The notes: generated from the letters alone by a model not told the origin. Shown: positions 29,760 to 60,452, counted from the first letter of the stretch. The stretch: DNA of 64,000 nt from Candidatus Moraniibacteriota bacterium (GCA_003507445.1 DNVR01000004.1:28243-92242); one strand, 5' to 3'. A program made the numbers and translations.

Positions 29760-29779
29760 AATGATTTATTAATACCCTT

Positions 29780-35558: not shown

Positions 35559-35579
35559 TCTATCAGTATTAATGCAATA

Positions 35580-36467: not shown

Positions 36468-36469
36468 AG

Positions 36470-38061: not shown

Positions 38062-38086
38062 TCTATTTATAGTTATTAATAAAAAA

Positions 38087-38779: not shown

Positions 38780-39135
38780 ACACATTTCTGCTCTTTGCAA
38801 CTGGTATAATCCTTGGTTCTTTTGGCGGTGTTTTATTGAAAGCTGGATCAAAAAATATCCTCTTTTCTGGAACTATAACAAAAGAATTACTCCTAAGCTT
38901 ATTACTTAATTGGAAAATATTTCTTGGTCTTATTTGCTACTTTATACCAGCAATTATATGGATATTTCTCCTAAGAAAATATCCACTGAGTTTTGTACAA
39001 CCAATCCTGGCATTAACCTACGTTATAACACCAATTCTCGCAATTTTAATACTTAAAGAAGGAATACCACCAGCAAGATGGCTTGGAATAATTATAATTA
39101 TTATTGGTGTTTTTATTATATCAAAAACACAATAA
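38776..39135 (+). CDS. SMR/EamA-like 4-TM small membrane protein (ArnE/ArnF-like lipid-linked sugar flippase candidate)
   Basis: 119 aa with four TM helices. Motifs GGVLLKAGSK and FVQPILALTYVITPILAILILKE resemble ArnE/ArnF. A 4-nt ATGA overlap with the methyltransferase gene. Confidence 0.55.
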   Translation: MNTFLLFATGIILGSFGGVLLKAGSKNILFSGTITKELLLSLLLNWKIFLGLICYFIPAIIWIFLLRKYPLSFVQPILALTYVITPILAILILKEGIPPARWLGIIIIIIGVFIISKTQ

Positions 39136-39147
39136 AATGATCGACTA

Positions 39148-41148
39148 TTAACGATGTTTAAATAAAATCATTGAGTATTTACTATTAATAGAGTTTTCAC
39201 TTTCAAATACAATCTCATATTCTCCGCTCATATTTTCCAATAAAAATTTAGAATAAACAGAGTTCTTATAAACGAGTATGTTTTTTGGAGACATACTTTT
39301 TACTTTGTTTATCCACTCTCGCTGCTCTTCTATTGATAATGTACTAAGTTGAGCTGGACCACCTGGCCATCTATCATTTTTTGTTCCCGGAAGAAATTCC
39401 ACTACATTACTATATTTCCTATTCCATAATAATCCATGATAAGTGTTAACATTCCATACTAAAACATCATTTTTACCACTATTATCACGAATAAATTTAA
39501 TAATGTCTGGCATGGGATAACTATCATATCCCATTGTATTTTTTTCAAGTGCAAGAGATGACCTTGTCTTCCAAGATATCCCAGCACTGTCCAACGACCC
39601 TATCCATCCCAAACTTTTTTTCATATAAGAAAAAGGCACTAGCAACGTCATCATACATACCAACATGATAAAAAATCTAATTTTTTTTATATTTGAACCG
39701 ACTACAAATTGTTGAAAAAACGCCACGGCTATAATTATAGCAAGAGCAAACATTGGAATACCATATCGTGGCAAGAAGAAACCTGGGATGAGAAAGGAAG
39801 CAAAAAAAGCTACCGACAATATTTTAAACCATTTTTTTTTAGTAAAAAAAACATACACTGAATAAAAAAATGCAAAGAAAACAGCTACCACAATAAACAC
39901 CAGCCCTGTAGAACCAAATGAATCAGCATTTAAAGGATTAAGTATGTCAATCCAGGAAGCATAATATCTTTGAAAATATCCCATTTTAGAAACGACTCCC
40001 ATGGTACTATTTCCACCAATTCCAAAATCTCCTGAATCAACAATTCCATTAAAAAAATTAACATTAAATATCTTCAACCCTAGTGGATATATAGGATTAT
40101 CATATAAAAACCAATTTTTTATATACTGCAAATTAGCTAAAAATACGATTAGAAGGAAAAGAAAACCTTTTTTTGTATATATAATTGTTATTATTTTCCT
40201 TAAAAAATTATTGCGATTATTAACATAAATAAGCTTTGCAAAAAATAAAACGCCTAGATATAAAAACACCGTAATGGGAATTTTTATTATTGATGCCAAA
40301 GCTATTGCCAAAGCTACAAATATTAAATTTCTCTGAATATTTTCTTTTTTAAGAGGGGTTAAAAAAGCAATCATAGCTATAATTGAAGCAGCATAGTCAA
40401 TGTCAATATATCCTGTAGTTGAAAGTAAAAAAAAGATAGGCATTGAAATAAATATGCCAATTGCATACAAAGACCAAGCCTGAGAGATACCACTTCTCCT
40501 TGCTAATACGTATATTGCAGTTAATAACTGTAGACCAAATATAAACTGAACTCCATTAAATAACAGGTCTGAATTTGTAAGCTGCAATGTCCAATACCAT
40601 ATTATTTCCGCACCTTTTGGATAAAGATAAGTCCAAGGTAAATCACTATCAATTTTACCCAAAACACCATCTTGATATGGTTGGACTGCCATAGGAATAT
40701 GATACGAAAGAACATCAGAACCACCATTTGGATTTAAAAAAATTGCAAATAAAAAATAGCATACTAACACAAGCGCCATAAGCAACACAAAAATCCTTGT
40801 TACTAAATCCATTTTTTTAAATATTATAACGACTGCTTTACTGACTTCAAAAAAGGATTCTCTCCATGCAACCACCTTATTTTTTATTGGTGAAGCAAAA
40901 ACAAAAAGACTAACCGCAACGACATGAAAAAGCCATAGATAATGTAATGGTTTTATAATTGGAAATTGAGACAAAATAAATACTTCTGATATTATAAAAA
41001 GAAAACTAAACAAAAATGCTGCTAAAAATCTTTCCGATAATAAAAATTCCCTATTTTTTCCCATAACAACAACGACATTCCAAAAAACAACAAACGCGGA
41101 TGCAAGTGTCAAGAAAAATAAAACGATATTTATAAATTCTATGGTCAT
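39148..41148 (-). CDS. large GT-C-fold polytopic membrane glycosyltransferase candidate with C-terminal soluble domain
   Basis: 666 aa. The first 500 aa are multi-TM and the C-terminal 160 aa are soluble. It converges on the prs-ubiA-HAD-GT4-MTase-SMR operon. Confidence 0.45.
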   Translation of the reverse strand: MTIEFINIVLFFLTLASAFVVFWNVVVVMGKNREFLLSERFLAAFLFSFLFIISEVFILSQFPIIKPLHYLWLFHVVAVSLFVFASPIKNKVVAWRESFFEVSKAVVIIFKKMDLVTRIFVLLMALVLVCYFLFAIFLNPNGGSDVLSYHIPMAVQPYQDGVLGKIDSDLPWTYLYPKGAEIIWYWTLQLTNSDLLFNGVQFIFGLQLLTAIYVLARRSGISQAWSLYAIGIFISMPIFFLLSTTGYIDIDYAASIIAMIAFLTPLKKENIQRNLIFVALAIALASIIKIPITVFLYLGVLFFAKLIYVNNRNNFLRKIITIIYTKKGFLFLLIVFLANLQYIKNWFLYDNPIYPLGLKIFNVNFFNGIVDSGDFGIGGNSTMGVVSKMGYFQRYYASWIDILNPLNADSFGSTGLVFIVVAVFFAFFYSVYVFFTKKKWFKILSVAFFASFLIPGFFLPRYGIPMFALAIIIAVAFFQQFVVGSNIKKIRFFIMLVCMMTLLVPFSYMKKSLGWIGSLDSAGISWKTRSSLALEKNTMGYDSYPMPDIIKFIRDNSGKNDVLVWNVNTYHGLLWNRKYSNVVEFLPGTKNDRWPGGPAQLSTLSIEEQREWINKVKSMSPKNILVYKNSVYSKFLLENMSGEYEIVFESENSINSKYSMILFKHR

Positions 41149-41169
41149 TTTATTATTAATTATAATTTA

Positions 41170-42579
41170 TTATTTTTTCAATGATGGAAATATTTTAATA
41201 AAACGACTTCTTAATTCATCTTGATTTGCATTTGATTCTAGCAATATTTTCAAGTCAGCGACCACCTCATTTATATCCATCGGACATTCTTCATGATTTT
41301 TTAGTTGAAAAACATTATCAATTTCAGTTTTAACTAAGTTTCCCATTTCTTTTTCTGTAAATAGCTCCTCGATCATTTTTTCACCATCCTTAAGACCTAT
41401 AATATTAATTTCAACATCCTCATCTGGAATTAAATTCTTTGTTCTGATTAAACAAAGTGCTGCTTCATATATATTAATTAATTCTCCCATATCAAGGATG
41501 TAAATTTCACCATGATTATCACGTGCAATACTAGTTACAACAAGTTGTGCAGCTTCACGAATTGACATAAAAAAACGTCGTACATCTTTATGAGTCACTG
41601 TTATTAATCGATTCTCTCTAATCTGGCGTTCAAACAAAGGCAATACTGAGCCATTTGAATTAATGACATTTCCAAAGCGTACAATATTAAATTTTGTCTT
41701 TGAATCTCCAATACATTTAATGTAATATTCTGCTAACTTCTTTGTTGATCCCATAATGCTGGTTGGATTAACAACTTTGTCAGTTGAAATAAAAATAAAA
41801 TTCTTTATCTCATTTTCAATTGCAGCATCAACCACATTTTTTGTGCCTATCACATTGTTCATTATGGCTTCATCAATATTATCCTCCATCAAATATACAT
41901 GTTTATACGCTGCTGCATGAAAAATAAAATCTGGCTGTTCTTCTTTGATAATGCTACTCATTTTCTCACGATTTAAAATACTGCCAATCACGAGTCTATA
42001 TTTCTCTTTCGGAATATTTTTTTCTTTTAAATTTTGATCGATATTAAAAATAAGATATTCCGAATTATCATAAACAACAACTTTTTTGACACCAAGGTCA
42101 ATAAGTTGTCGAACAATTTCACTTCCAATTGAACCAGCTCCTCCAGTTATAAAAACTATTTTATTATTATAAAATTCTTTAAGCTTTTCAACATTTTGTT
42201 TCAAAAATGGCCTTCCAAGAAAATCTTCTAGAGCGAAATCTTTCACGTCAGCATACTTAACATCATTTTGCCCTATGACATGTTGTGAGCGTGGAACCAA
42301 TCTAATTTTAGTCCTGTTCTTAAGACTATTTAAGAGAATTTTCCTCATCAATTCTCCATCAGCTGAAGGAATTGCAATAATTATCTCATCAATTTTGTAG
42401 ATTTTACTTATTTTTGATAATTCCTCTATTTTTCCAATAACATTCAAACCAATCTCCACTAACTCTTGATCATCAACAAAGCCAATAATCTTAGCATCAT
42501 TAACATTTTTTTCTATATCTTCTTTTAACAACTTGCCGGCTATCCCAGCACCCACAATAAGAATATTTCTATAGTCCAT
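41170..42579 (-). CDS. UDP-N-acetylhexosamine 4,6-dehydratase, CapD/PglF/WbpM-like (soluble form)
   Basis: 469 aa. An N-terminal Rossmann-like linker domain (ILIVGAGIAG) is followed by the SDR catalytic domain IVFITGGAGSIGSEI with HAAAYKHV (YxxxK). Confidence 0.75.
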   Translation of the reverse strand: MDYRNILIVGAGIAGKLLKEDIEKNVNDAKIIGFVDDQELVEIGLNVIGKIEELSKISKIYKIDEIIIAIPSADGELMRKILLNSLKNRTKIRLVPRSQHVIGQNDVKYADVKDFALEDFLGRPFLKQNVEKLKEFYNNKIVFITGGAGSIGSEIVRQLIDLGVKKVVVYDNSEYLIFNIDQNLKEKNIPKEKYRLVIGSILNREKMSSIIKEEQPDFIFHAAAYKHVYLMEDNIDEAIMNNVIGTKNVVDAAIENEIKNFIFISTDKVVNPTSIMGSTKKLAEYYIKCIGDSKTKFNIVRFGNVINSNGSVLPLFERQIRENRLITVTHKDVRRFFMSIREAAQLVVTSIARDNHGEIYILDMGELINIYEAALCLIRTKNLIPDEDVEINIIGLKDGEKMIEELFTEKEMGNLVKTEIDNVFQLKNHEECPMDINEVVADLKILLESNANQDELRSRFIKIFPSLKK

Positions 42580-42584
42580 ATAAG

Positions 42585-43433
42585 TTATATATTTAAATAT
42601 TTTTTAATTACATCCGAATTTTTTTCATAAAAAAATGCAGTCTTTTTTAAGCCCTCTTCCATAGAAATCAGTTTAACTTTTTCAAGCAAAACATTATTTC
42701 CCAATGGGCATAGATTATTTTCCGTATTTTTCTTATCAATAATTTCAATCTCTTTTATAAAAACTTTTTTCTTACAAATTTCAAGCAAATCACCAATTGA
42801 AATAAGTTTTCCAGTTGCCAAATCTGTTTTACCATAAAAATCATTTTCAATAACCGAGCGCACAAACTTTGCCATATCTTCTGCGTATATAAAATCTCTT
42901 TTAGCACTCATATCATTTATTTCAATTGGTATATTATTTTGGTAATTAAACAAAATATTTGCAATTAGACTTCCTTGTTTATATGGAATCTGAAATTTTC
43001 CATAAATGTTAAATAATCTTAAAATCGTTAGATTGATATTATTTTTTTCACAATAATCCTCATAAAACTTTTCTAATATAATTTTTCTTTTAGCATACGG
43101 TGATTCTGAATTTGCATAAATGACCGCGGAAGAAAATAGGATGAGATGACTGTTTTTTAAAAATCCAATATTTTCAATTAGTTTTAATTCTTCTTTCTCA
43201 AATTCATCATCTAAAACTTGATTATCGATGAGATGAACATAGGCATCAAATTTTTTAAGATTTTTATCTTTATATGCATTTCCCTCAATAAAAACATCTT
43301 TTCTACCTGAACCGAAGACGGATTCTTCTATGCCTAAAGAATAGCAAGAAAAAACATCAGATAATTCAGCTGCGATATTTCTACCAATGAAACCCTCCCC
43401 ACCCAGGATTAAAATTTTCTTTTTATTATTCAT
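42585..43433 (-). CDS. NAD(P)-dependent epimerase/reductase, SDR family (short)
   Basis: 282 aa with ILILGGEGFIGRNI (Rossmann) and SPYAKRK (YxxxK). Confidence 0.55.
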   Translation of the reverse strand: MNNKKKILILGGEGFIGRNIAAELSDVFSCYSLGIEESVFGSGRKDVFIEGNAYKDKNLKKFDAYVHLIDNQVLDDEFEKEELKLIENIGFLKNSHLILFSSAVIYANSESPYAKRKIILEKFYEDYCEKNNINLTILRLFNIYGKFQIPYKQGSLIANILFNYQNNIPIEINDMSAKRDFIYAEDMAKFVRSVIENDFYGKTDLATGKLISIGDLLEICKKKVFIKEIEIIDKKNTENNLCPLGNNVLLEKVKLISMEEGLKKTAFFYEKNSDVIKKYLNI

Positions 43434-46400
43434 TTATATTTTCATACAAATTTTTATATTTATCAGCAAGAATTTCAATAGAGAAGTTTTCCTCCACTGA
43501 TTTTCTGGCATTTTTAGAAATTTTCTCTAAAATTTCCTTTTGTGATAAAACATACTCAATTTTTTCAACAAGTTCACTTGGGGAATTAGGTTGCATTAAA
43601 AATCCAGTCTCTGCATCTTTTATTGCATCACTAACACCACCAACATCAGAAGCAATAACACAAACACCCATAGCCATAGCCTCCACATTTGAAAGAGGAA
43701 AACCTTCAGCTTTAGATGGTAACACAAAAATATCGGCGGTGCTCAAATAACAAGGTATATCAGCTTGATAACCCAAATAACTTAGGTTTTTGTCTCCAAA
43801 TTCATTAATTGTTTTTTCAATTTCCATTCGCATTGGGCCATCTCCAATGACAAAGAATTTTATATTAACACCATTGTCCAAGACTTTCTTTGCAGCTTCA
43901 ACAAAAATATCTGGATTTTTTTCTGGCGAAAGCCTGCCCATAAAATATACAGCTATGTCATCCTTATTGATGTTTAGTTTTTCACGCTCAGCTAATCGAT
44001 CATACAAAACTGGATTGAATTTCCCATTACAATCAATGCCATTATAAATAACTATTTTTTCCTTACTACTTATTGCTGATTGTTCATCATAAGCCTTCAA
44101 GACTTTCGTATTATCAGTTGTATATATATCAATAAAATCAGCATATTTAATTGAATTATTAAAGTGATCAGCAACAACGTTAAATACCGTACTTATAACT
44201 TTCAATCTTGGAAATCTCTTTCTCAGATCTGGAAGCATTTCATAAAAACTGCTGTTATGAACAATATGGAGCACATCGATTTTCCTGCTTTCAATATAAT
44301 TAGCAACAAAGTTAAAATATTCTTCTTCTCTTAGAAATAAATTTGGCAAATGATAAATATTATTAGTAACTTCTTTGAATTTATATTCCCATTCATTTTC
44401 ACTTTTAAGTCCAGTTATGATTGAGATATTGAAATCATTTTTTATTTTTGAACAATAGTTATATACAAGAGTTTCAGCCCCACCAAAAGTAAGCCAGGGC
44501 ATCAAAATAAGAACGTTTTTCTTTTCTTTTTTCCCTTGAAGATACTCCTTTGAATTTTTAAGATTAACAAACTGACTATTATCCTCGAAAATATTTCTCT
44601 GCATAATCCAATTTTCCTTAAGCTCTTTAATCCTCTTTAAGTATCTAGGATGTAATTTTTTTATTTTTTCAATATTTTCATCTCTTTTTTTCTTATCATC
44701 AATATAGCGAGATTCTACAGCTCTACGATAATTGAATACTGGCTCAGGGAAAAGTCTTGCTTTCGATCCATTTTCCACAAGATTAATCCAAAACTCCCAA
44801 TCTTCAAAACCAATACCGCGCTTGTACCCACCACTCTTCTCCCATACACTTTTCCTGAATACAGAGGCAGTTGTTATGATATTTGAAGAATACAAAAGCT
44901 GTGGATCAAATTCTGGCTCTTCGAAAATTCTTTCTTCAATGCCAAAAAAATTCATGTGTGAATATACAATATCAATATCAGGATTAGATTCCAACACAAC
45001 AAGCATTTTTTCCAAATAAGTAGGAGCGATAATATCATCAGAATCTAAGCATAGGATGTATTTTCCTTTTGCCTTAATGATTCCATTGTTTCTGCCCGCA
45101 GCCACACCCTGATTTTCCTGCGTAATCTTAATAATTTTTGGATGATTTATTTTTTCAAATACAATATTACTCTCAGCATCGGTTGAACCATCATTAACAA
45201 TGATGTATTCAAAGTTTTGAAACGTTTGGCCAAGCACACTCTCCACTGTTTCACCAAGGGTTTTTCCATGATTAAAAAATGGTGTAACAACTGAAATAAG
45301 TATCCCTTCCCATTTTTCATTTTTTACTTTTTTAGCCAAAACGCGATATCTTCTTGGTAAATATGGTCTAATAACTGAACGAATTTCCTCGCTTAAATAT
45401 TTTTTTGCTAAACAAACAATGCGTCCCTCTATTTTATTTCTTAATGATCTAAAACTATACACCACATTCCTTAGTATATATCTCAATTTAATTGCTGGTG
45501 TTACAACTCTTGAATGATACAGGTCATGAAGCTCATCTGACTGTTTCTGTATAATGAGTTCATTTTTTTGAATAACAATATCTTTTTTAACAATATCTTT
45601 TTTAAATTCATTATTGTCAATTAAACATTCGCTCAAAATTTCCGACATATTATTTGGAAATTTTAACAATATTTCATTTATCATCCCTGATTTTTCTTTT
45701 TTGTCTATTTCAATAATAACATTTAACAGATAATTCACGTGATAAGAAATTATCTGCCTATATTCCAAGTTTTTTCCAAAAAGTTTCAACAACTCAAAAT
45801 ACATAGCAATGAAAGAAACACCGTGTTTTTTAAACAACCCCTCTTTATTGCCATGAGAATCCCACCATATTCCGCCAGAATGTCTTCTATAAGCAGACAT
45901 AGTCTTATCTATAAATCCAATTTTTCCAAATTTTGCATGATAGAGATGTAAGTACCAGTCACCAGGAACAATATTGATTTTTGGTAAATCTTTATAATTC
46001 TGCCTTCGATACATCACCGACATCGTTGGTATAAAATTATTTTTTAACAAAGACAATGTTGTTAATTCTGGAAGATCAACGGCTCTTGGGTATATAGATT
46101 TCGCACCTTCTTTATTTTCAAAAAAAATCTTTACCGAATGAAAGCACACGGCATAATCCAGATTTTTATCCAAAAAATCAACTTGCAATTGCAATTTATT
46201 TTCATCAATAAAAAAATCATCCCCATCGCAAATTACTATGTATTTCCCATTAGCACAACGGAGCGTATCAAAAAAGTTTTCCGTTGTTCCAATATTTTTT
46301 TCTCTAAATATTGGCTTAATTACATTTGGATATTTTTTTTCAAATTCTTTTATAATTTCTCTTGTTTTATCAGTAGAACAATCTTCACCAATAATTATTT

Positions 46401-46509
46401 CGAAATCAAAATTTGCTTTTTGCATTATAAAACTTTCCAGTGTTTGCTGGATAAATTTTTCATGATTATACGCCACACAAACTATGGAAACTATTGGCTT
46501 ATTACTCAT
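43426..46509 (-). CDS. tri-domain GT2-GT2-GT4 fusion glycosyltransferase
   Basis: 1027 aa. Domain 1 has IVSIVCVAYNHEKF...IIGEDCSTD...CDGDD. Domain 2 has ISVVTPFFNHGKT...IIVNDGSTD...LDSDD. Domain 3 has NVLILMPWLTFGGAE ... KAEGFPLSNVEAMAMGVCVIASDVGG (GT4). Confidence 0.7.
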   Translation of the reverse strand: MSNKPIVSIVCVAYNHEKFIQQTLESFIMQKANFDFEIIIGEDCSTDKTREIIKEFEKKYPNVIKPIFREKNIGTTENFFDTLRCANGKYIVICDGDDFFIDENKLQLQVDFLDKNLDYAVCFHSVKIFFENKEGAKSIYPRAVDLPELTTLSLLKNNFIPTMSVMYRRQNYKDLPKINIVPGDWYLHLYHAKFGKIGFIDKTMSAYRRHSGGIWWDSHGNKEGLFKKHGVSFIAMYFELLKLFGKNLEYRQIISYHVNYLLNVIIEIDKKEKSGMINEILLKFPNNMSEILSECLIDNNEFKKDIVKKDIVIQKNELIIQKQSDELHDLYHSRVVTPAIKLRYILRNVVYSFRSLRNKIEGRIVCLAKKYLSEEIRSVIRPYLPRRYRVLAKKVKNEKWEGILISVVTPFFNHGKTLGETVESVLGQTFQNFEYIIVNDGSTDAESNIVFEKINHPKIIKITQENQGVAAGRNNGIIKAKGKYILCLDSDDIIAPTYLEKMLVVLESNPDIDIVYSHMNFFGIEERIFEEPEFDPQLLYSSNIITTASVFRKSVWEKSGGYKRGIGFEDWEFWINLVENGSKARLFPEPVFNYRRAVESRYIDDKKKRDENIEKIKKLHPRYLKRIKELKENWIMQRNIFEDNSQFVNLKNSKEYLQGKKEKKNVLILMPWLTFGGAETLVYNYCSKIKNDFNISIITGLKSENEWEYKFKEVTNNIYHLPNLFLREEEYFNFVANYIESRKIDVLHIVHNSSFYEMLPDLRKRFPRLKVISTVFNVVADHFNNSIKYADFIDIYTTDNTKVLKAYDEQSAISSKEKIVIYNGIDCNGKFNPVLYDRLAEREKLNINKDDIAVYFMGRLSPEKNPDIFVEAAKKVLDNGVNIKFFVIGDGPMRMEIEKTINEFGDKNLSYLGYQADIPCYLSTADIFVLPSKAEGFPLSNVEAMAMGVCVIASDVGGVSDAIKDAETGFLMQPNSPSELVEKIEYVLSQKEILEKISKNARKSVEENFSIEILADKYKNLYENINE

Positions 46510-46519
46510 ATTTTTTTAA

Positions 46520-47779
46520 TTATAAACATTCCATGCCATCTAGATCAAACACGGGAATTTTTAAATTTTTAAAGACAATATTTCTTTCAGAAAATGAATC
46601 ATCTATAAATATTGACTCGGGTTTAATAAACCCAAATTTATGTTCATCATTTTCAATATGAATAATTTCAGCAAATAACTCTTTGGATATCTTACAATAT
46701 TCTAAGCTTTTATATATATCTCCCGAGTGTTTTGTTATTAGAAATACTGATTTATTTTTATTTAAACATCTATATATAAAAGCAATAACACTTACATTAA
46801 CATTTCCATTTTTTAATACCAATGTATCATCAAAATCAATATACACATTTTTATAAGATATATCCATCTTATATTTAGCACTTAAAGACCTATCAATCTC
46901 AATATTAAAATCATTTAACAATATAGAAACATTAACATCCATGAGATCATACAAGCTTAATAATGGTAGATTTACACCTCGCACCCTGGACAGAGACATT
47001 GTCCCAGCAACACGTGGAGAAATTTCCAGCAATACCAATTTACCATCTGCACGCTCTTTGAGTTGAAAAAACCAAACACCCCTAAACACCAACGTACTAT
47101 TTATCTTATTTGCTATTTCTAAAAATATCTCATTATTCTCTAATCGAGAATTTACACTAATACCATTTGATACGCGAACCCTCTCCCTACCTTGAGCAAA
47201 AAGTAAAACGCCTTCTTTGTTTGTAAAGCAATCAATGGTATATTCTTTGCCTGGTAAATATTCCAACAGCATTAGTGATGCATCTCTCCTTATTGAAAAC
47301 CTAACTTCTTCAATATTATTAGCTTTAAAAGTGCCCTTTGACCCCTGTCCGATATTGGGTTTCAAAAATATTGGGAATTTTAAATTATCTTCAATATTGA
47401 AAACGATGGGCGTGTCTATTATATTTTTAAATAATTCGTATGTATCTTTTTTTGATCTACAAATTTTACATGTCTTAAATGGAGAAGTTACTACAATTGC
47501 ACCTATTCTTTCTTGATTTTGTGAAAGATTCAAAACAACACTATCATGAGCAGGAAAAATAAAGTCAATTTTATACTTTTTTACAACTTCACAAATAGCA
47601 TCGATAAAATTATCATCCTCTACAAATGGAATTTTTGATATATAATTTTCATAAACAAAAAGACCATGGTCATCCACTGAGGATGCACCATACAAATTAA
47701 AGTCTTTTGAAAATTCCAACGACCTTCCTATTTCTAGCCCAATTTCACTTCCACATGGGAAAACTAATACATTTTTCAT
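46520..47779 (-). CDS. ATP-grasp domain protein with C-terminal HAD-like domain
   Basis: 419 aa with FPIFLKPNIGQGSKGTFKA (ATP-grasp central domain) and LLEISPRVAGT. The C-terminal VYIDFDDTLVLKNG is DxDxT. Confidence 0.55.
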   Translation of the reverse strand: MKNVLVFPCGSEIGLEIGRSLEFSKDFNLYGASSVDDHGLFVYENYISKIPFVEDDNFIDAICEVVKKYKIDFIFPAHDSVVLNLSQNQERIGAIVVTSPFKTCKICRSKKDTYELFKNIIDTPIVFNIEDNLKFPIFLKPNIGQGSKGTFKANNIEEVRFSIRRDASLMLLEYLPGKEYTIDCFTNKEGVLLFAQGRERVRVSNGISVNSRLENNEIFLEIANKINSTLVFRGVWFFQLKERADGKLVLLEISPRVAGTMSLSRVRGVNLPLLSLYDLMDVNVSILLNDFNIEIDRSLSAKYKMDISYKNVYIDFDDTLVLKNGNVNVSVIAFIYRCLNKNKSVFLITKHSGDIYKSLEYCKISKELFAEIIHIENDEHKFGFIKPESIFIDDSFSERNIVFKNLKIPVFDLDGMECL

Positions 47780-47788
47780 TAATTTGTT

Positions 47789-49327
47789 TTATTTTTTAAA
47801 TAAATCGCCAAGATTATTTACAACAATAGCAGGAAATGCATCTTGAGATATTTTTTCTAAATCTATCCTATTGGTTTCTCCTGATAAAACACAAACAAAA
47901 TCTATCCCAGCATTATCAGCAAGCCTTTTATCAGTATGCAGCCTGTCACCTACAATTGCCAACTTTTCTTTACCGTATTTTTTTATTTGTTTTTCAATTA
48001 ACGAAACCGATGGCTTCCCTAATATCATTTGAGGATAAAATCCGTTTGTTTTTTCTATAAGTGCCATTATTGAACCAATATCTGGAATTGGACCATTTTC
48101 ACTTGGGCAAAAGGAGTCTGAGTGAGTAGCAATATAATCTACTCCTTTTTTATTTAACAAAATAACCGCTTTTTTCAATTTATCATAAGTAATTTCATCA
48201 TCATAAGTTAAAATAACTGCTTGATTTCTATTTAAATCATATTCGATTGATACCCCAGGTAATTCTTTTTTAATGAATGATTTTACTTGTTTATTTGCAA
48301 TTAAATATAAAGATGTATACCGCATTGTCTTAATATAATCAATCAACGAAAAAAGTGGTGTGGTAATCTGATTTTCACTAACAGAAATACCAAACTTAGA
48401 TAATTTTTTAATGTAATCATTAGGAACTTTTGAAGTATTATTAGTTAAATAATAGAAATCAAAAATGTTGTCATTCTCTCTTACAAAATTTACAGCACCT
48501 TCTATCGAAGTATTTCCTATACAAAGAGTGCCATCTATATCGCAAATAAAAGCTTTTTTAGCTCCATAATTAAATCTGGAAAAAATTTTATCCGCTACTG
48601 ATAAATCATCTAGATTATCAATTTCAACCCAATTATATTTCCTTACATCAAAAGGCAGAACATTAACAATTCTAAATAAAACAGGGAATGAAACTTCTGT
48701 CCACTGATTTAAGTCCTTCTTGATCTCAATAAATTCACCAATTATTTTTAACAATAACTTTGCAGATTGGTAGCTATATTTATATAAATCTACTGAAACA
48801 CCTGCCGACTTAGAAGGTGAAATATTTTTAGAAATATCTACTATGTTTCCAGATTCAGAAAGTTCAATTTTCATTGATTCCTCTATATATACTCCCCTTT
48901 TTATAGCAATTGCATTATCTAGACCACAGTTTACGAATTCGTATATTAATTTTTCATCATAAACACAATCAGCGTTATTTATAAATAATGTATCGAATTT
49001 AGATTTACCTTCATTTATATATTTTAACGCAATGTATAGAGAATACATATTATTAGTAGTTCTATAATTACTATTTTCCAAAATCTTAACTTTTGGATAT
49101 TTAAAATTAATATATTCATTTATCTTATCAGAAAAATATCCTGCAACAATTACAATATCTTCTTCTCTTAGCCCAGCTTTTAGGTATCCATCTATTTGAT
49201 ATTCTATTATTGATTTTCCACCCACGCACACTAAAGACTTTGGCTTAATATCCGTAATTGGTGCAAGCCTACTTCCAATACCCGCAGCAAGAATTATCAC
49301 TTTTTTATAATCTTTCATCTTTGACAT
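47789..49327 (-). CDS. bifunctional sugar/alcohol-phosphate nucleotidyltransferase (LicC/GCD1-like) + HAD-IIA phosphatase
   Basis: 512 aa. The N-terminus VIILAAGIGSRLAPIT is a nucleotidyltransferase G-loop. The C-terminal half carries FICDIDGTLC ... GKPS ... VGDRLHTDKRLADNAG, which are HAD-IIA motifs. Confidence 0.65.
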   Translation of the reverse strand: MSKMKDYKKVIILAAGIGSRLAPITDIKPKSLVCVGGKSIIEYQIDGYLKAGLREEDIVIVAGYFSDKINEYINFKYPKVKILENSNYRTTNNMYSLYIALKYINEGKSKFDTLFINNADCVYDEKLIYEFVNCGLDNAIAIKRGVYIEESMKIELSESGNIVDISKNISPSKSAGVSVDLYKYSYQSAKLLLKIIGEFIEIKKDLNQWTEVSFPVLFRIVNVLPFDVRKYNWVEIDNLDDLSVADKIFSRFNYGAKKAFICDIDGTLCIGNTSIEGAVNFVRENDNIFDFYYLTNNTSKVPNDYIKKLSKFGISVSENQITTPLFSLIDYIKTMRYTSLYLIANKQVKSFIKKELPGVSIEYDLNRNQAVILTYDDEITYDKLKKAVILLNKKGVDYIATHSDSFCPSENGPIPDIGSIMALIEKTNGFYPQMILGKPSVSLIEKQIKKYGKEKLAIVGDRLHTDKRLADNAGIDFVCVLSGETNRIDLEKISQDAFPAIVVNNLGDLFKK

Positions 49328-50589
49328 ATATTTGTATGATATCTTATTAACTCCACAACTCTCTCACTATTATCGCCATCAATATGCTCATAAAATAGCT
49401 GCCTAGCGAGCTTATATTGAACTGTGTTTATTTGAATATTTTTTTTAAGCTCATCTTCAACTGAATTCAAAATATCCTCAAATTTCGATAAAATTGGACC
49501 AGGAAACACCGTGCCCATATCATAAAGTAACCCGCGTTGCTTTTCTTCGTAATGTTTTTTATCGTATGCAAAGCTAAAAACTGGTTTATTTACATACAAG
49601 GCATCCAAAAAAAGCGAAGAATAGTCCGTAATAAAAATATCAGAAAATCTAACAACTAAACCAGCTTCATCAATAACTGATTGTCCTAAATCAAAAATAT
49701 ACTCGTTATCAATAAATTTTTCAATATTACACAATTCGGAACTATTTCTATAATAATGAAGACGTACTCCCAAAACAGCATTGTTTCTTTTTAAAAAATT
49801 TACCATTTTTTTTATCTCATCGTCTGAAAATTGATAGTAGACAGATCCAGAGACTGCAACCTCTTTATACGTTGGAGCATAAATGATTAATTTTTTATCG
49901 CCTTTTATTTGTAAAATTTTATCACTTTGAGTTTTGTAATTTTGAGAAAGGAGCTCCAACGCCTTAACTAAATAGTCGTTTCTAGGAAGTCCTGTTATCC
50001 AAATATTCTGGGGCTTAATCGGATAAAAACAAGCACCCATAGCATAGCTGTCGATTGAAGAAGACGCGATCAATCCAGTATAAAAACTTCTCTCTTTTTT
50101 TATTTCTGATACATTTTCCCCAATTTCAGAAGGAGAAAGATGCTGAATTTTTTTCAATGGTATACCATGCCAAAGGTTAACAATGATTCTTTTCTTAAGA
50201 TTCATTTTTATCACGTTATGATTCCATCTTTCTGAAAAATTCATAAACACAGTATGGTCGCACAAAACAACACCTGACTGCAAAAGAAGCATCAAACCTT
50301 TAGCAGAAAACATATTAACTATTTCAGTGTTTTCATAGTTATCAATATTTAAATCTATTTCATCTGAAATAGTAAAGATAATTTTTTTAATACTAATATT
50401 ATTCTTAACAAATTCAAAAACACCCCTCGTGTTCCCCATGAATTTACCTCTTTCTATGAGATGACAAGGAAAGGCCCAGTAATTATTTTTTTTAGGCCAA
50501 AAATAATCAAGTATTCTAAATACTAAGAGTAAAAAGGGGATTTTAATTTCATTTTTTATTATCATGCTATATCCAGATTTAACAAACAT
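49315..50589 (-). CDS. CDP-glycerol/polyol-phosphate transferase, TagF/TagB family
   Basis: 424 aa with NLWHGIPLKKI and LIIYAPTYKE (YAPTFR motif), characteristic of teichoic-acid-type glycerophosphotransferases. Confidence 0.65.
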   Translation of the reverse strand: MFVKSGYSMIIKNEIKIPFLLLVFRILDYFWPKKNNYWAFPCHLIERGKFMGNTRGVFEFVKNNISIKKIIFTISDEIDLNIDNYENTEIVNMFSAKGLMLLLQSGVVLCDHTVFMNFSERWNHNVIKMNLKKRIIVNLWHGIPLKKIQHLSPSEIGENVSEIKKERSFYTGLIASSSIDSYAMGACFYPIKPQNIWITGLPRNDYLVKALELLSQNYKTQSDKILQIKGDKKLIIYAPTYKEVAVSGSVYYQFSDDEIKKMVNFLKRNNAVLGVRLHYYRNSSELCNIEKFIDNEYIFDLGQSVIDEAGLVVRFSDIFITDYSSLFLDALYVNKPVFSFAYDKKHYEEKQRGLLYDMGTVFPGPILSKFEDILNSVEDELKKNIQINTVQYKLARQLFYEHIDGDNSERVVELIRYHTNICQR

Positions 50590-51683
50590 TCATTTATTGT
50601 CGCACATATTATTTCAATATTTTTCATCTCCAGTCCATAATACAGCGGTAAACATAAAATCCTTAACGAGATATCCTCTGAAACTGGACAATGTTGTTGA
50701 TTCTTGAGATATGTAAGAGTGTTTAAAGATGGATAAAAATATCGCCTAGGATAGATATTTTTATCATTTAATTTTTTCATTAAATGCAATGTTTCAACTT
50801 CATCTTTCAAAACGATAGGATAATAGGAATAATTATATTCCACCTCACATGGAATCATCATTTTGTTAACCACGTCGGATAATAAGTAATCGTAAGTCTC
50901 GGCGATTTCTTTTCTTGATTTTATTATTTTTTCAACATATTTCAAATTGCACAATCCCATTGCCGCTTGAAATTCCGATGCTTTTGCGTTTATTCCCAAA
51001 CAAATGTATTTGTCGTCATGATGCCCAAATCTTCTTGTAAGCTCAATTTTTTCACTAATTTTTTTTTCTTTTGCTATAATACAGCCACCCTCAATCGTGT
51101 GAAACAATTTTGTTGCATGAAAACTACACGTTGAAATATCTCCATAACTCAACAATGATTTACCTTTATAATTAACACCAAAAGCATGTGCACCATCATA
51201 AATAACCTTCAAATTATACCTCTTCGCAATTGATTCAATTTTTTCAATATCACAAGGGATTCCAAAAACATGAACTGCCAGAATTGCTTTGGTATTTTTC
51301 GTTATCGCTTTTTCTATTTTTTCAGCATCAATGCAAAAATTATCAGAATTAATGTCAACGAAAACTGGAGTACATCTCTCCCATAATATCGCTGAAGTTG
51401 TGGCAACATATGAAAATGGCGTAGTAATGATCTCTCCCTCAACTATATCTAGAGCATTTAGCGCCAATTGAATAGCAATTGTTCCATTTGAAACAATATG
51501 CATATCCTTTACCTTTAAATATTTTTTCACCTTTTCTTCAAGCTCATTCAGTAGCATTCCTTGATTAGTTAGGTGGCAAGAATCCCAAATACTATCTAAA
51601 TATTTCTGATATTTAGACATTGGGGGAAGAAAAGATTTGGTTACATAAATATTTTTCATTTTATTACAATATTTTTCATCCAT
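50562..51683 (-). CDS. DegT/DnrJ/EryC1-family PLP-dependent sugar aminotransferase
   Basis: 373 aa with SNGTIAIQLAL and SFHATKLFHTIEGG, which carries the PLP Lys. It follows the ABC ATPase gene directly. An alternative start is 51659. Confidence 0.8.
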   Translation of the reverse strand: MDEKYCNKMKNIYVTKSFLPPMSKYQKYLDSIWDSCHLTNQGMLLNELEEKVKKYLKVKDMHIVSNGTIAIQLALNALDIVEGEIITTPFSYVATTSAILWERCTPVFVDINSDNFCIDAEKIEKAITKNTKAILAVHVFGIPCDIEKIESIAKRYNLKVIYDGAHAFGVNYKGKSLLSYGDISTCSFHATKLFHTIEGGCIIAKEKKISEKIELTRRFGHHDDKYICLGINAKASEFQAAMGLCNLKYVEKIIKSRKEIAETYDYLLSDVVNKMMIPCEVEYNYSYYPIVLKDEVETLHLMKKLNDKNIYPRRYFYPSLNTLTYLKNQQHCPVSEDISLRILCLPLYYGLEMKNIEIICATINECLLNLDIA

Positions 51684-52919
51684 TTAACTGTTCCATGAGT
51701 GTTTAATATCACAAAAACCTCTGTAGCTATTTTTTATTCCACTTGAATATATCTTTAATACCTTGTAACTCAATTTAAGATCATAAGGGTTTATTTCAAT
51801 ATCCTTCCAGCATCCAACATTGATAATGTATTCCCCTTTCAAAATTGGCAAATCATTAAAGTGTAGCACGATACTATTTTTAGTTTTATCTACATCTATA
51901 TTATCCATTTGTGTATTATACCCAAAAATTTGACCTCCAGATACCGCATGTAAACCTATTCCAAAATTAAGCTCTTTAATTTCACCATGAATCTCAAAGT
52001 CAATTTTAATATCCAATTCATCACCAGTTTCGAAAACACTTTTATCTTTACCATTTTTATCTAAAAATTCCACTCCCGTAATTTCAACAATTTTATTAGA
52101 ATTAGATTTATCAACTTTACCAAAAACAACAACTTTCTTTTCTTTTTCTGCTTGTTCATCGCTAATTCTTTTTTCTTCATCTGACATATTTTCATAAACA
52201 TATTCATTAGCCACATCAATAGCTTTCCCTATTTTCAATATTTTTCCGTTTCGAAGAAGCATCGCTCGATCGCAATATTTTTCAACAACCAGGGTATCAT
52301 GTGTCACCAAGATCACAGTTTTGCCTTGATTTTTGTATTTTGTAAATTCTCTAATACATTTTGACTGGAAATTATTATCGCCCACTGCCAGCACTTCATC
52401 CATCAGCAGAATCTCGCGGTTGGCGTGAATGGAAACGGAAAAAGCCAGGCGGACTTGCATACCGGAGGAATAATTTTTGAGTTTTTGATCAATAAAACGT
52501 TCCAGTTCAGAAAATTTCACAATTGAATCAAATTTCTTGTCAATTTCTTTTTTGGTCAGACCCAAAACCGTGGCATTAAGATACACATTGTCGCGACCAC
52601 TTAGTTCTGGATTAAAACCAATTCCCAATTCCAAAAACGGCGAAATCCGCCCATCAATTTCCACACTCCCCTTGTCAGTCTGATAAATCCCAGCCAGAAT
52701 TTTCAATAGCGTGCTTTTCCCACTCCCATTTCGCCCAATAATCCCAAAAAATTCCCCCTTCTTCACCTCAAAGCTAACGTCATCCAACGCCTTAAATTCC
52801 TCATAGCCCTTATTGCGGCTAAATGCGCTCACGGCTGCGCCACGCAAAGAAGACACCTTCTCATGAGGAATTTTGAAGGTCTTTGAGACGTTTTTGACGC
52901 TGATTGCTATATCATTCAT
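51684..52919 (-). CDS. wzt: ABC transporter ATP-binding protein, Wzt/TagH-like with C-terminal extra domain
   Basis: 411 aa with Walker A GRNGSGKST, signature YSSGMQVRLAF and Walker B LLMDEVLAVGD. A beta-rich C-terminal domain of about 150 aa resembles the Wzt carbohydrate-binding domain. Confidence 0.8.
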   Translation of the reverse strand: MNDIAISVKNVSKTFKIPHEKVSSLRGAAVSAFSRNKGYEEFKALDDVSFEVKKGEFFGIIGRNGSGKSTLLKILAGIYQTDKGSVEIDGRISPFLELGIGFNPELSGRDNVYLNATVLGLTKKEIDKKFDSIVKFSELERFIDQKLKNYSSGMQVRLAFSVSIHANREILLMDEVLAVGDNNFQSKCIREFTKYKNQGKTVILVTHDTLVVEKYCDRAMLLRNGKILKIGKAIDVANEYVYENMSDEEKRISDEQAEKEKKVVVFGKVDKSNSNKIVEITGVEFLDKNGKDKSVFETGDELDIKIDFEIHGEIKELNFGIGLHAVSGGQIFGYNTQMDNIDVDKTKNSIVLHFNDLPILKGEYIINVGCWKDIEINPYDLKLSYKVLKIYSSGIKNSYRGFCDIKHSWNS

Positions 52920-52987: not shown

Positions 52988-53377
52988 TTATTTTTTGATA
53001 AATTCTTTGTTTTGCTTTTTCTCAACTAAATATGCTATAAATTTTCCAATCTGAGCTGACAATATTTCCAACTCTTTATTTGTTTTTTCGAATTCAAACT
53101 CAGTAATATATTTTATTGCAAATGCTATGTGAAGTTGATTTCTAACCTCTCCTGCAGAACCTTTCGCGATTCTTAAAAAACGCGCGAACTCATTATTGTT
53201 GTTTTTCTCAAATCCTTCTACTATGTTAGAACTAACGGAAACAATAGCTCTCCTTATTTGATCGCGCAATCCAAAATCTCTAGCAAAATCTTTTTCTGAC
53301 GTATAATCGTAAATTACTTTTGTTATTCTTAAACTATCCTTCCAAATATTCAATTCTTCAAATTTTTGTATTTTCAT
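52988..53377 (-). CDS. four-helix-bundle protein (TIGR02436 / Avd-like, so-called 23S rRNA intervening-sequence protein)
   Basis: 129 aa. KIQKFEELNIWKDSLRITKVIY ... ARFLRIAKGSAGEV is typical of this family. It is flanked by 11-bp perfect inverted repeats gttaacgagtt (52948-52958) and aactcgttaac (53378-53388), plus GTTAACGCGTTAAC palindromes. Confidence 0.7.
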   Translation of the reverse strand: MKIQKFEELNIWKDSLRITKVIYDYTSEKDFARDFGLRDQIRRAIVSVSSNIVEGFEKNNNNEFARFLRIAKGSAGEVRNQLHIAFAIKYITEFEFEKTNKELEILSAQIGKFIAYLVEKKQNKEFIKK

Positions 53378-53544
53378 AACTCGTTAACCCGTCAACACGT
53401 TAACTAAATAATAAATAAACTTTGGACTTCCTTAGTCATTGGAAATTTAGATTTAGGATTTTATGGTTATTCTTGACGCTAATGGCAATATTATCTTCCA
53501 TCTAAATATTGTAGCTTATTTTTTAATTCCATTCCAGCTTTTTC

Positions 53545-54585
53545 CTATTTTTCAATATTTTTAAATTTATAGTAAGTCGCTTTTCCATTTCCCTGTTTTT
53601 CAATAATATTCAAAGCTATCAGCTTTCTAAAATCAAGATTTCTTGTTGGCTTTGCCCTATCAATCAATTTTGCATAGTCACGATCACTGATAAAGCCATG
53701 TTTTTCAATATATGCGATAATTTTTTTATGATAAGACTTCAACTCATTTTCTGGAGATGCAGTTTCTTGGTTCAGTTGCTTTTCAACCCTAAGCAGCTCA
53801 TCAATGATTCCATCCGTAAAATATTCAAGCCAAGAAGTGAAGTCTATGTCATTTTTAATGTCATAATAGTTGCCAAGTAAACCAACTTCTTGAAAATATT
53901 TGCTCACATTTTGATTGTAATAATTTTCAAAACTGAAAAGATTGAACGTGTTGAGACCCATCTTGGCAAGCAACACCTTTGTTGCCAAGCGGGCAGTTCG
54001 TCCATTTCCATCAATGAAGGGATGAATGATGACAAATTGTTTATGAAAAATACCCGCCAAAATCAATGGATCGATTTTATTTTCATTTTTAATCACATAT
54101 TCAAAAATTTCATTCATCAATTTTGGCACTTCCAAATGTTCAGGCGGAAGATAGACCGTTTGACGAGTTTTTGGATTGTTGACAAAAACTGGCTCCTGCC
54201 TCAATTTCCCTGACCTATTTTTTTCAATCAAATCCTGAGTGACAGTTTTTTGAATTTTCAAAATCAAAGACAAGTCGAAAATCTGCTTTTCATCGGCAAT
54301 CAATTCATTCAATTCAATCAATGCCTTATTGTAGTTCAAAACTTCTTTTTCACTGTCGCGAATATGTTCGGGCTTATTTTTCAAAATCCTCTTTACGTCA
54401 GTGAGCGGCAATGGATTACCCTCAATACTCGTGGAAGAAAAAGCTGATATTTCTCTTGCTCTTTTTTCCAGTTCAGCCAGAATTACGCCAGAAAAACTCC
54501 GACTGTTCAGGCCAGTGACTATTTCCGTTATTCTTTTAATATTGGCCAATAACTGACCAGAAATGATATATTTTGGATGAAACAT
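53545..54585 (-). CDS. Fic/DOC-family protein (AMPylator-type, class II with N-terminal inhibitory motif)
   Basis: The core motif HPFIDGNGRTARL (HPFx[DE]GNGR) is present. The N-terminal STSIEGN matches the (S/T)xxxE(G/N) inhibitory helix, and a C-terminal winged-helix-like domain follows. The track start 54591 is TTG; the first ATG is at 54585. Confidence 0.85.
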   Translation of the reverse strand: MFHPKYIISGQLLANIKRITEIVTGLNSRSFSGVILAELEKRAREISAFSSTSIEGNPLPLTDVKRILKNKPEHIRDSEKEVLNYNKALIELNELIADEKQIFDLSLILKIQKTVTQDLIEKNRSGKLRQEPVFVNNPKTRQTVYLPPEHLEVPKLMNEIFEYVIKNENKIDPLILAGIFHKQFVIIHPFIDGNGRTARLATKVLLAKMGLNTFNLFSFENYYNQNVSKYFQEVGLLGNYYDIKNDIDFTSWLEYFTDGIIDELLRVEKQLNQETASPENELKSYHKKIIAYIEKHGFISDRDYAKLIDRAKPTRNLDFRKLIALNIIEKQGNGKATYYKFKNIEK

Positions 54586-54599
54586 TAGCAATTTTTAAA

Positions 54600-54790: not shown

Positions 54791-54828
54791 TGCTTGATTT
54801 TGTTTGATATGGCATCATATTAACCTTA

Positions 54829-55989: not shown

Positions 55990-56014
55990 ATATTTATATC
56001 AATATTTATTAAAG

Positions 56015-59675: not shown

Positions 59676-60452
59676 TTAGATTTCTTCCGCAACCTTGGGA
59701 ATAAATTTTCGATATGAAAATATGCTTAGGGCGAAAGCGCCAAAAACGATGGCGATGAACACGGTGTATTGCGAAAGGCTGGCGAAATGATTGTTGATGA
59801 GTGATTCCTTGGTAAAGTGAATAATAAATGCCAAGGGATTAAGTAGAATAAATTTATGATATGCTGCCGGCAAAGTTACTAAGGGATAAATAATCGGCGA
59901 CGCGTACAAAATTATCATCAATAAAACTTCCCAAATCATCGCCAGGTCGCGAAATTTAACATACAGCGGTGCAGTGATGAGTGAAAAAGAAAGAACGATA
60001 ATATATATGAAAACAGAAAACATTAAAAACAAAAGAACTGCTGGAATGCTCGGCATGAAACCTTTAAGCGCAAAGAAAAAAACAATCACAACAAGGTTCA
60101 TCAAAAATATCAAAGTTGCATTAATTGTAGAAGCAATAATAATCGTCCAACGTGGCACATAAATTTTGGTCACAAGTTGAGCTTTTGATAAAAGTGAACT
60201 CATTCCTGCTGTCGTTCCTTCAGAGAAAAAATAAAACATCATAAGCGCAACCAACAACTGCAACGAATATGTGCTCATTCCGGTTCCACGAGGATTAAAC
60301 ATTGAAGAAAAAACAAAATTCATCACCGCAAAAGTAAGCAATGGCTTGAGCAGCGCCCACAAATATCCCAAAACACTTCCGTGATAACGAAGTTTAAAAT
60401 CAGTTTTCGCTAAAGCCCAAATCAGCTCCTTATAATTTTCGTGTTGTTTCAT
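59676..60452 (-). CDS. wzm: ABC-2 type polysaccharide/teichoic-acid export permease (Wzm/TagG-like)
   Basis: 258 aa with 6 TM helices. The N-terminus ELIWALAKTDFKLRYHGSVLGYLWALLKPLL is the canonical ABC-2 permease start. Confidence 0.8.
   Translation of the reverse strand: MKQHENYKELIWALAKTDFKLRYHGSVLGYLWALLKPLLTFAVMNFVFSSMFNPRGTGMSTYSLQLLVALMMFYFFSEGTTAGMSSLLSKAQLVTKIYVPRWTIIIASTINATLIFLMNLVVIVFFFALKGFMPSIPAVLLFLMFSVFIYIIVLSFSLITAPLYVKFRDLAMIWEVLLMIILYASPIIYPLVTLPAAYHKFILLNPLAFIIHFTKESLINNHFASLSQYTVFIAIVFGAFALSIFSYRKFIPKVAEEI

Follow-up and report, generated by a model that had tools for sequence, protein, structure and literature searches.

Two HAD fusion enzymes in a surface-glycan operon of a Moranbacteria-like bacterium point to separable glycerol-phosphate and amino-sugar modules

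A 64,000-nucleotide stretch of DNA from a Candidatus Moraniibacteriota bacterium (GCA_003507445.1, DNVR01000004.1:28243-92242; hereafter the window, whose coordinates are used throughout) carries, among genes for a cell-surface polysaccharide, two adjacent genes whose products each end in a domain of the HAD (haloacid dehalogenase-type phosphatase) family. One joins a nucleotidyltransferase to a HAD-IIA domain and the other an ATP-grasp ligase to a small HAD domain. What do these fusions do, and do they serve one pathway or two? A preliminary description had suggested that both, together with a TagF-like transferase, may define a single new pathway for an activated alcohol. We favor a different answer, with a probability of about one half: the operon would direct a surface glycan that is exported by Wzm/Wzt and built with two separable modules, one for glycerol phosphate (module A) and one for an N-acylated 4-amino-4,6-dideoxy sugar (module B).

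Calling of open reading frames (ORFs) showed that the genes of the interval 41170-51683 are part of a nine-gene operon on the minus strand, running from 52919 down to 39148. The spacing between neighboring genes ranges from -28 to +21 bases, and we therefore treat the nine as one operon. Their products were assigned with Pfam and NCBIfam, and solved relatives were found by comparison with PDB structures. The nine genes are given here in order of transcription, followed by the gene for the permease partner of Wzt:

51684..52919, minus strand: Wzt, the ATPase of an ABC transporter, carrying a carbohydrate-binding Wzt_C domain at its C terminus (Pfam and NCBIfam), first gene of the operon
50562..51683, minus strand: DegT-family pyridoxal phosphate (PLP) aminotransferase, DesI-like (Pfam DegT, 295 bits)
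49315..50589, minus strand: TagF-like alditol-phosphate transferase, probably a glycerophosphotransferase (Glyphos_transf, 178 bits)
47789..49327, minus strand: fusion of a LicC/PntC-like nucleotidyl (cytidylyl) transferase (residues ~1-250) and a HAD-IIA domain (residues ~255-512) (Pfam, NCBIfam)
46520..47779, minus strand: fusion of an ATP-grasp ligase (residues ~1-300) and a cap-less HAD phosphatase domain (residues ~310-419) (Pfam, NCBIfam)
43426..46509, minus strand: three-domain glycosyltransferase, GT2-GT2-GT4, 1027 residues (Pfam)
42585..43433, minus strand: short extended short-chain dehydrogenase/reductase (SDR), 282 residues, Pal/CapF-like (Pfam Epimerase)
41170..42579, minus strand: PglF/CapD-family UDP-GlcNAc 4,6-dehydratase, soluble form (Polysacc_synt_2, 324 bits)
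39148..41148, minus strand: polytopic membrane protein, 666 residues, with many hydrophobic segments in the translation, last gene of the operon
59676..60452, minus strand: Wzm, ABC-2 permease and partner of Wzt (Pfam ABC2_membrane, 49.5 bits; tblastn with a Wzm representative)

The six gene products named in the preliminary description were thus all present, on the minus strand and with correct domain calls, but its inventory had left out the 1027-residue glycosyltransferase, Wzt and the 666-residue membrane protein. The closest relatives are Candidatus Moranbacteria, and the locus is an ordinary-looking cell-surface polysaccharide operon of a Moranbacteria-like bacterium of the candidate phyla radiation (CPR). 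Its kind, an ABC-transporter-dependent, teichoic-acid-like decorated glycan, is already known; it contains two fusion families for which we found no characterization in the literature. The G+C content is 28-30% over the glycan genes (window positions 34000-52000), as compared with 33-40% in the remaining window, and low G+C is typical of variable surface-polysaccharide islands.

The first fusion is a protein of 512 residues that matches the Pfam families NTP_transferase, Hydrolase_6 and Hydrolase_like. Its N-terminal domain is related to LicC (PDB 1jyk, 4.5e-16) and, over residues 8-247, to full-length PntC (6pd1, 1.6e-14), and a LAAGxGxRL nucleotide loop combined with similarity across the whole domain marks it as a putative phospho-alcohol cytidylyltransferase of the LicC/PntC type. 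The C-terminal domain passes the TIGR01460 cut-off (104 bits versus 100.15), is related to TM1742 (3e-46) and carries all four catalytic motifs, and is thus a genuine HAD-IIA (NagD-type) domain; it also resembles, more distantly, the glycerol-3-phosphate phosphatases 4i9f and 7po7. An alignment (A2) of 13 diverse fusions shows no variation in HAD motifs I-IV or in the nucleotidyltransferase G-loop, the conserved residues being D263, D265, T295-S299, K438, D461 and D466 in the HAD domain and G16, G18, R20 and K30 in the N-terminal domain.

The second fusion scores 78 bits with Pfam ATPgrasp_Ter (cut-off 29) and is of the PRK12767 type in NCBIfam. Its C-terminal ~105 residues contain the HAD motifs DFDDT...TKH...K...DDS, and D315/D317/D318, K381 and D393/D394 are invariant in an alignment (A1) of its relatives. 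Given that the HAD catalytic motifs of both fusions are kept across diverse members, these are evidently working enzymes and not relics. An AlphaFold2 model of the second fusion (pLDDT 90.3, pTM 0.88) consists of a classical ATP-grasp fold followed by a minimal, cap-less, Rossmann-like HAD core. Foldseek matched it with probability 1.00 to 2pn1, PylC, L-amino-acid ligases and biotin carboxylases, and PurK was also a fold neighbor; judged by this modeled fold and its conserved nucleotide-binding residues, the domain would fit among the carboxylate-amine ligases. A fold search aimed at its substrate pocket, along the lines that the preliminary description had proposed, returned only generic ATP-grasp relatives. 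The closest of them in both sequence (9e-11) and fold, 2pn1, belongs to the PRK12767 proteins called "carbamoyl-phosphate-synthase-like" and differs in having neither a HAD domain nor a known function.

Contrary to what had been supposed, neither fusion is unusual; both proved to be common, though we found no characterization of either. A sequence search returned 597 relatives of the nucleotidyltransferase/HAD-IIA fusion, and a metagenome scan 315 further matches. Full-length fusions with 41-74% identity come from Alphaproteobacteria, Spirochaetes, Calditrichia, Zixibacteria, Fervidobacterium, Arcobacteraceae and Helicobacter. A search for annotated full fusion copies on plasmids gave single-domain matches only, the plasmid-borne relatives of the N-terminal domain alone being annotated as members of the phosphocholine cytidylyltransferase family. 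The ATP-grasp/HAD fusion has 5220 relatives below E 1e-5, of which the best 120, the query's own cluster aside, are 418-452 residues long and match at 98-100% query coverage and 53-69% identity; across phyla, full-length relatives are 47-69% identical. When one genome from each GTDB species was scanned with a sequence pattern, 536 stretches with the protein emerged, in 536 species of Bacteria and Archaea, with carriers among Bacillaceae, Saccharibacteria, Bacteroidota, Akkermansia, Geobacter, Planctomycetota and Methanobrevibacter and in one Asgard archaeon. A Muribaculaceae contig (locus L024) carries, 1.6 kb upstream of its complete ATP-grasp/HAD gene, a fragment of 61 residues (8240-8422) that matches the N terminus of the protein at 62% identity and may be the remnant of a duplication. 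The names given to the two families at the source are generic ("HAD-IIA family hydrolase" and "carbamoylphosphate synthase large subunit short form"), and for neither fusion did we find a functional name, an NCBIfam equivalog at cut-off or a solved structure spanning the whole protein.

Do the two fusions belong together? The idea that both act with the TagF-like protein in one new pathway for a CDP-activated alcohol or sugar phosphate, perhaps modified with an amino acid, draws on the adjacency of the three genes in the window and in a related Moranbacteria contig. For one fusion we compared 80 loci from genomes, and for the other the same number of loci from metagenomes. Outside Moranbacteria the partner fusion was present in 0 of ~78 other ATP-grasp/HAD loci and in ~1 of 78 nucleotidyltransferase/HAD-IIA loci, and individual loci tell the same story. 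A Moraniibacteriota locus (L060) has the order ATP-grasp/HAD, methyltransferase, DegT, glycosyltransferase (1084 residues), SDR and PglF, the last two being 56% and 68% identical to their counterparts in the window, and contains neither a TagF-like gene nor a nucleotidyltransferase/HAD-IIA fusion. Conversely, Brucepastera has the nucleotidyltransferase/HAD-IIA fusion, with a TagF-like gene directly after it, and lacks the ATP-grasp protein. By gene content, then, the two fusions appear to belong to separate conserved gene groups outside Moranbacteria, and a single pathway uniting them is very improbable. The content of L060 also indicates that the dehydratase and SDR travel with module B in this lineage, where module A appears to be an independent insertion.

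What does module A make? To define its context we called and clustered ORFs in 81 loci and counted neighbors in the 16 loci that had an orthologue of at least 41% identity and usable flanks. Counting up to two genes away from the fusion, 11 of the 16 have a TagF-like gene and 9 have a Pfam-confirmed, GpsA-like NAD-dependent glycerol-3-phosphate dehydrogenase. In a Chitinophagaceae genome (L078), where the order is DegT, ATP-grasp/HAD, TagD, TagF-like and GT2, TagD stands where the window has the fusion, next to the gene for a TagF-like protein with 46% identity to that of the window. The window's own TagF-like protein matches Glyphos_transf (PF04464) far above the cut-off of 22 bits, has a WHGIPLK motif in its translation and has TarL (2e-17) and TagF (1.5e-16) as nearest solved relatives, which places it among the predicted TagF-like alditol-phosphate transferases. 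An attempt to type its donor by homology was abandoned: TarF, TarL, TagF and Cps3D are all distant, the NCBIfam models for TarF, TarL and TarB score far below their cut-offs, and the TagF proteins of neighbors are only 22-46% identical. We therefore relied on gene context, and the GpsA-like neighbors and the TagD swap favor glycerol as the alcohol. Thus, module A looks like a source of a CDP-glycerol-type donor, and the alcohol is most likely plain glycerol phosphate rather than a new polyol.

The predicted donor enzyme is not TagD or TarI/TarJ, as the preliminary description had held. The window fusion matches NTP_transferase/NTP_transf_3 and LicC/PntC and not PF01467 or IspD, and the operon has no TarJ-like gene. 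Module A thus shares with TagD/TagF and with TarI/TarJ/TarL the plan of a CDP-alditol donor, a TagF-family phosphotransferase and ABC-transporter export, but its donor enzyme is LicC/PntC-like with a HAD-IIA domain instead of being of the CTP_transf_like (TagD) or IspD type that marks those CDP-alditol synthases. A parallel in gene roles is the pneumococcal CDP-2-glycerol pathway, in which Gtp1 is a dehydrogenase, Gtp2 a nucleotidyltransferase, Gtp3 a phosphotransferase and WchX a glycerol phosphotransferase (PMC1391919, PMC3493582). In both, a nucleotidyltransferase of the LicC-like kind is combined with a phosphotransferase and with an enzyme that transfers glycerol phosphate, and in many related loci a dehydrogenase adjoins. 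The differences are that the nucleotidyltransferase and HAD-IIA domains, which we set beside Gtp2 and Gtp3 by gene roles, form one polypeptide here, and that the neighboring dehydrogenase of other genomes is GpsA-like, with none in the window.

We infer from these associations each substrate and the order of the steps, for this module as for module B. The fusion probably activates glycerol phosphate: its LicC/PntC-like domain would couple CTP and glycerol phosphate to give a CDP-glycerol-type donor, from which the TagF-like enzyme would move glycerol phosphate onto the glycan. The HAD-IIA domain, its catalytic residues intact, would most likely prepare the substrate of the cytidylyltransferase by phosphoryl transfer, and the role we favor for it, by analogy with Gtp3 of the pneumococcal pathway, is that of a glycerol-phosphate mutase or phosphotransferase yielding glycerol-2-phosphate. 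A serious alternative is that module A makes ordinary CDP-sn-glycerol, the HAD-IIA domain being an accessory (an inorganic pyrophosphatase or a phosphatase that trims a bisphosphate) and the fusion a functional equivalent of TagD. The exchange with TagD beside an orthologous TagF-like gene in L078 speaks for it, as do the GpsA-like neighbors, which would supply sn-glycerol-3-phosphate directly, and the presence of LHPP, a pyrophosphate phosphatase (2x4d), among the PDB matches of the HAD-IIA domain. We nevertheless consider it unlikely: glycerol-3-phosphate is not usually activated by cytidylyltransferases of the LicC/PntC type, the closest HAD-IIA relatives of known substrate act on small phospho-alcohols, including glycerol-3-phosphate, and all the homologues that we examined retain the domain and its catalytic residues unchanged, which argues for an obligatory step. 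A subgroup of loci from peat and other metagenomes (L104-L148) has relatives of the fusion at only 34-37% identity and no GpsA-like neighbor; the genes nearby instead encode a glucose-6-phosphate isomerase of the cupin type, GT4/GT2 enzymes and a protein like a membrane protease. The function of these relatives may therefore differ, and they could be sugar-phosphate mutases coupled to a nucleotidyltransferase.

Turning to module B, we examined the 52 loci in which the ATP-grasp/HAD gene is flanked by 6 kb or more of sequence on either side. A DegT gene lies within three genes of it in 44 of them and, after a recheck with tblastn, within 10 kb in 48. The partner DegTs are orthologous to that of the window (39-72% identity). 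The latter has QdtB and DesI as nearest solved relatives (~1e-45), an SFHATK lysine motif in its translation and PLP_DesI as its best NCBIfam match (221 bits, below the cut-off of 650); all ten partner DegTs tested likewise scored best on the model for DesI, a dTDP-4-keto-6-deoxyglucose 4-aminotransferase (220-311 bits, all below 650). In Bacillaceae the gene order RmlA, RmlB, TagF-like, ATP-grasp/HAD, DegT, GT2 recurs beside tagGH without RmlC/D, and the presence of RmlA-RmlB directly upstream without RmlC/D points to a dTDP-4-amino-4,6-dideoxyhexose. A third member of the group is a glycosyltransferase. Residues 1-360 of the window's 1027-residue transferase are 44-52% identical to stand-alone GT2 proteins that are encoded directly downstream of the ATP-grasp/HAD gene in several phyla (L003, L029, L032, L039 and L044), so that the first GT2 domain appears to be the conserved transferase of the module; the full-length GT2-GT2-GT4 architecture is also found in L060 and L070. 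The trio of DegT, ATP-grasp/HAD and GT2 occurs in Bacillaceae wall-teichoic-acid loci, Saccharibacteria, Bacteroidota, Akkermansia and Methanobrevibacter. In 16 of the 52 loci a methyltransferase is encoded a few genes away at most, and no conserved acetyltransferase of the LbH (hexapeptide-repeat) type was seen among the recurring neighbor clusters.

In 12 Bacillaceae loci (L025, L034, L038, L043, L045, L046, L048, L055, L058, L063, L065 and L081) the ATP-grasp/HAD and DegT pair lies within the apparent main wall-teichoic-acid region, with tagD, several tagF-like genes and tagG/tagH, and an unusually long TagF-like gene (~667 residues) stands immediately upstream of the pair. These genes are not explained by any published structure of a wall polymer known to us. 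Among cultivable carriers of the ATP-grasp/HAD and DegT genes are B. pumilus GM3FR (L043), B. glycinifermentans (L058) and Flavobacterium difficile (L014).

A role for the ATP-grasp enzyme in acylating an amino sugar, which the preliminary description had raised as a possibility, is plausible because of the tie to DegT in 48 of 52 loci and the carboxylate-amine ligase fold. On this evidence the fusion probably acylates the amino sugar, in the following manner. A 4,6-dehydratase (here the PglF-like enzyme with the Pal-like SDR, in most other genomes RmlA/RmlB) would yield a 4-keto-6-deoxy nucleotide sugar, which DegT would aminate. By way of an acyl phosphate, the ATP-grasp domain would then attach to this amine a carboxylic acid that bears a phosphate, 3-phosphoglycerate and phosphoserine being candidate acids, the fused cap-less HAD domain would take the phosphate off the acyl group and GT2 would transfer the N-acylated sugar. 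A literature search on ATP-grasp enzymes with DegT and TagF returned nothing relevant; a paper on the qim operon of S. pyogenes was likewise irrelevant, and a review of E. coli O antigens makes no mention of ATP-grasp acylation of 4-amino-4,6-dideoxyglucose (Qui4N).

The same three activities are known from a different pathway, the glucuronamide decoration of C. jejuni HS:2, in which the transaminase Cj1437, the amidoligase Cj1438C and the HAD phosphatase Cj1435 cooperate, a phosphorylated substrate being ligated and then dephosphorylated (PMC11800397). By a comparable route, the DegT enzyme of module B would transaminate a small keto-phosphate, for example dihydroxyacetone phosphate to serinol phosphate, the ATP-grasp domain would amidate with it a uronic acid already present in the glycan and the HAD domain would dephosphorylate the product. 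Such a route is established experimentally in C. jejuni, and it would explain both why a phosphatase is fused to a ligase and why many loci with DegT and ATP-grasp/HAD have no dehydratase nearby. The window also encodes a UDP-glucose dehydrogenase (Ugd; 17794-19119, minus strand) and, next to Wzm, an epimerase-type SDR (60504-61460, minus strand) whose N-terminal motif we take to be reminiscent of UDP-glucuronate 4-epimerases; given these two genes, uronic acids are probably available and the glycan may contain one. Several results nonetheless make the serinol route rather unlikely. Ugd is within six genes in only 5 of the 52 loci, the partner DegTs score best on the model of a nucleotide-sugar aminotransferase, RmlA-RmlB without RmlC/D stands directly upstream in Bacillaceae, and a dedicated GT2 follows the fusion. 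Moreover, neither Cj1438C nor Cj1435 shows any detectable sequence similarity to the fusion in the window: homology was rejected on a BLASTP E of 0.89, an hhalign probability of 0.6% and membership in different Pfam families. The C. jejuni enzymes share with module B a PLP aminotransferase, an ATP-grasp ligase, a HAD phosphatase and the ligate-then-dephosphorylate logic, but Cj1438C (ATPgrasp_TupA) and Cj1435 (a PF12710 HAD) are separate proteins and the window's DegT resembles a nucleotide-sugar aminotransferase. In the absence of sequence likeness, we keep that system only as an analogy of chemical logic and retain N-acylation of an amino sugar as the preferred role for module B.

Which nucleotide sugar is acylated in this bacterium? 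The dehydratase, which lacks an N-terminal membrane domain, has C. jejuni PglF/WlaL (5bju, 5e-72) as its best solved relative, as expected for a bacillosamine pathway, followed by B. thuringiensis Pen/CapD (4e-51). The SDR is related to Pal (6bwl, 3e-13) and Cap5F (1e-9), with a weak NCBIfam match to WbcJ-type reductases, and could either rearrange or reduce a 4-keto-6-deoxy-N-acetylhexosamine (HexNAc) intermediate. A bacillosamine-like sugar had been predicted from these genes, and the recurrence of the PglF-like enzyme, SDR and DegT in L060 agrees with it, making UDP-4-amino-4,6-dideoxy-HexNAc a plausible product in the window. The likeness to PglF/PglE/PglD and to the Pen/Pal/Pam enzymes of B. 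thuringiensis consists in a PglF-family dehydratase, a Pal-like SDR and DegT in one operon. Two differences stand against it: DegT scores best (below cut-off) on DesI, a dTDP-sugar enzyme, and not on PglE or PseC, and the ATP-grasp/HAD ligase is found where an acetyltransferase of the PglD/PseH type would stand, Pfam and NCBIfam showing no acetyltransferase domain in any of the nine operon proteins.

Several observations weigh against the two-module account as a whole. Homology of the TagF-like protein does not split glycerol from ribitol. It is paradoxical for an enzyme whose substrate must carry a phosphate to be joined to a phosphatase, unless the HAD-IIA domain is a mutase or a pyrophosphatase or acts on a bisphosphate, and the parallel with pneumococcal Gtp3 presumes that Gtp3 is a HAD-IIA enzyme. 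In module B, 4 of the 52 loci have no DegT within 10 kb. RmlA/RmlB are absent from the window and from the 10 kb that follow it on the right, yet loci that have RmlB or no dehydratase encode DegTs with 57-63% identity to that of the window, so the nucleotide sugar is ambiguous. The SDR, for its part, could be a reductase that converts the 4-keto sugar to N-acetylquinovosamine (QuiNAc) or N-acetylfucosamine (FucNAc), in competition with DegT.

A more specific proposal, which we put forward only tentatively, combines two claims: that DegT, ATP-grasp/HAD and GT2 constitute an unrecognized N-acylation pathway of Bacteria and Archaea, and that the nucleotidyltransferase/HAD-IIA protein is a bifunctional mutase/cytidylyltransferase that yields CDP-2-glycerol. 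In this joint proposal a hydroxy acid or amino acid would be attached through a phospho-acyl intermediate, 3-phosphoglycerate, for example, giving an N-glyceroyl group.

How would the finished glycan leave the cell? The product of the first gene of the operon matches Pfam ABC_tran (80 bits) and Wzt_C (70 bits) and is TagH/Wzt-like in NCBIfam, and its gene abuts that for DegT with zero gap. With a Wzt_C-bearing ATPase and an ABC-2 permease both encoded in the window, export is predicted to proceed by a Wzm/Wzt ABC transporter. The genes for the two lie ~6.7 kb apart, and between them (52988-59563) are genes for an LCAT-like secreted protein of 1182 residues, two small ORFs, a Fic protein and a 23S-rRNA-IVP protein. 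A 39-residue fragment in this region (54641-54757, minus strand) is 64% identical to residues 51-82 of Wzt, which suggests that the unrelated genes were inserted in an event that also duplicated part of wzt. The arrangement is shared by an independent ENA contig (L163).

At the other end of the operon, the gene for the 666-residue membrane protein begins 21 bases downstream of the dehydratase gene; its product, which has no Pfam or NCBIfam match, is possibly a glycosyltransferase of the GT-C type. Beyond it, on the plus strand (34635-39135), are genes for a protein like phosphoribosyl pyrophosphate (PRPP) synthetase, a UbiA prenyltransferase, a small HAD protein (PGP_phosphatase-like), a GT4, a methyltransferase and a small EamA-like membrane protein, a set that we presume to be akin to the mycobacterial route to decaprenyl-phospho-ribose/arabinose donors. 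Several large GT-C-like membrane proteins (PMT, PMT_2, DUF2142 and DUF6056) are encoded around that set, at 6883-10414, 26087-31198 and 39148-41148 (minus strand).

The exotic-looking pair of enzymes in this CPR genome is thus best seen as two portable modules brought together, and the value of the locus is as a pointer to two large families and to a conserved trio of DegT, ATP-grasp/HAD and GT2 that is testable in cultivable Bacillus. Both families are abundant and generically named, and firm roles for them would allow surface-glycan loci to be re-annotated by the hundreds to thousands, including wall-teichoic-acid regions of cultivable Bacillus and loci of gut Akkermansia and Methanobrevibacter. 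Such roles would also predict new sugar decorations that could be recognized by phages, antibodies and innate immunity.

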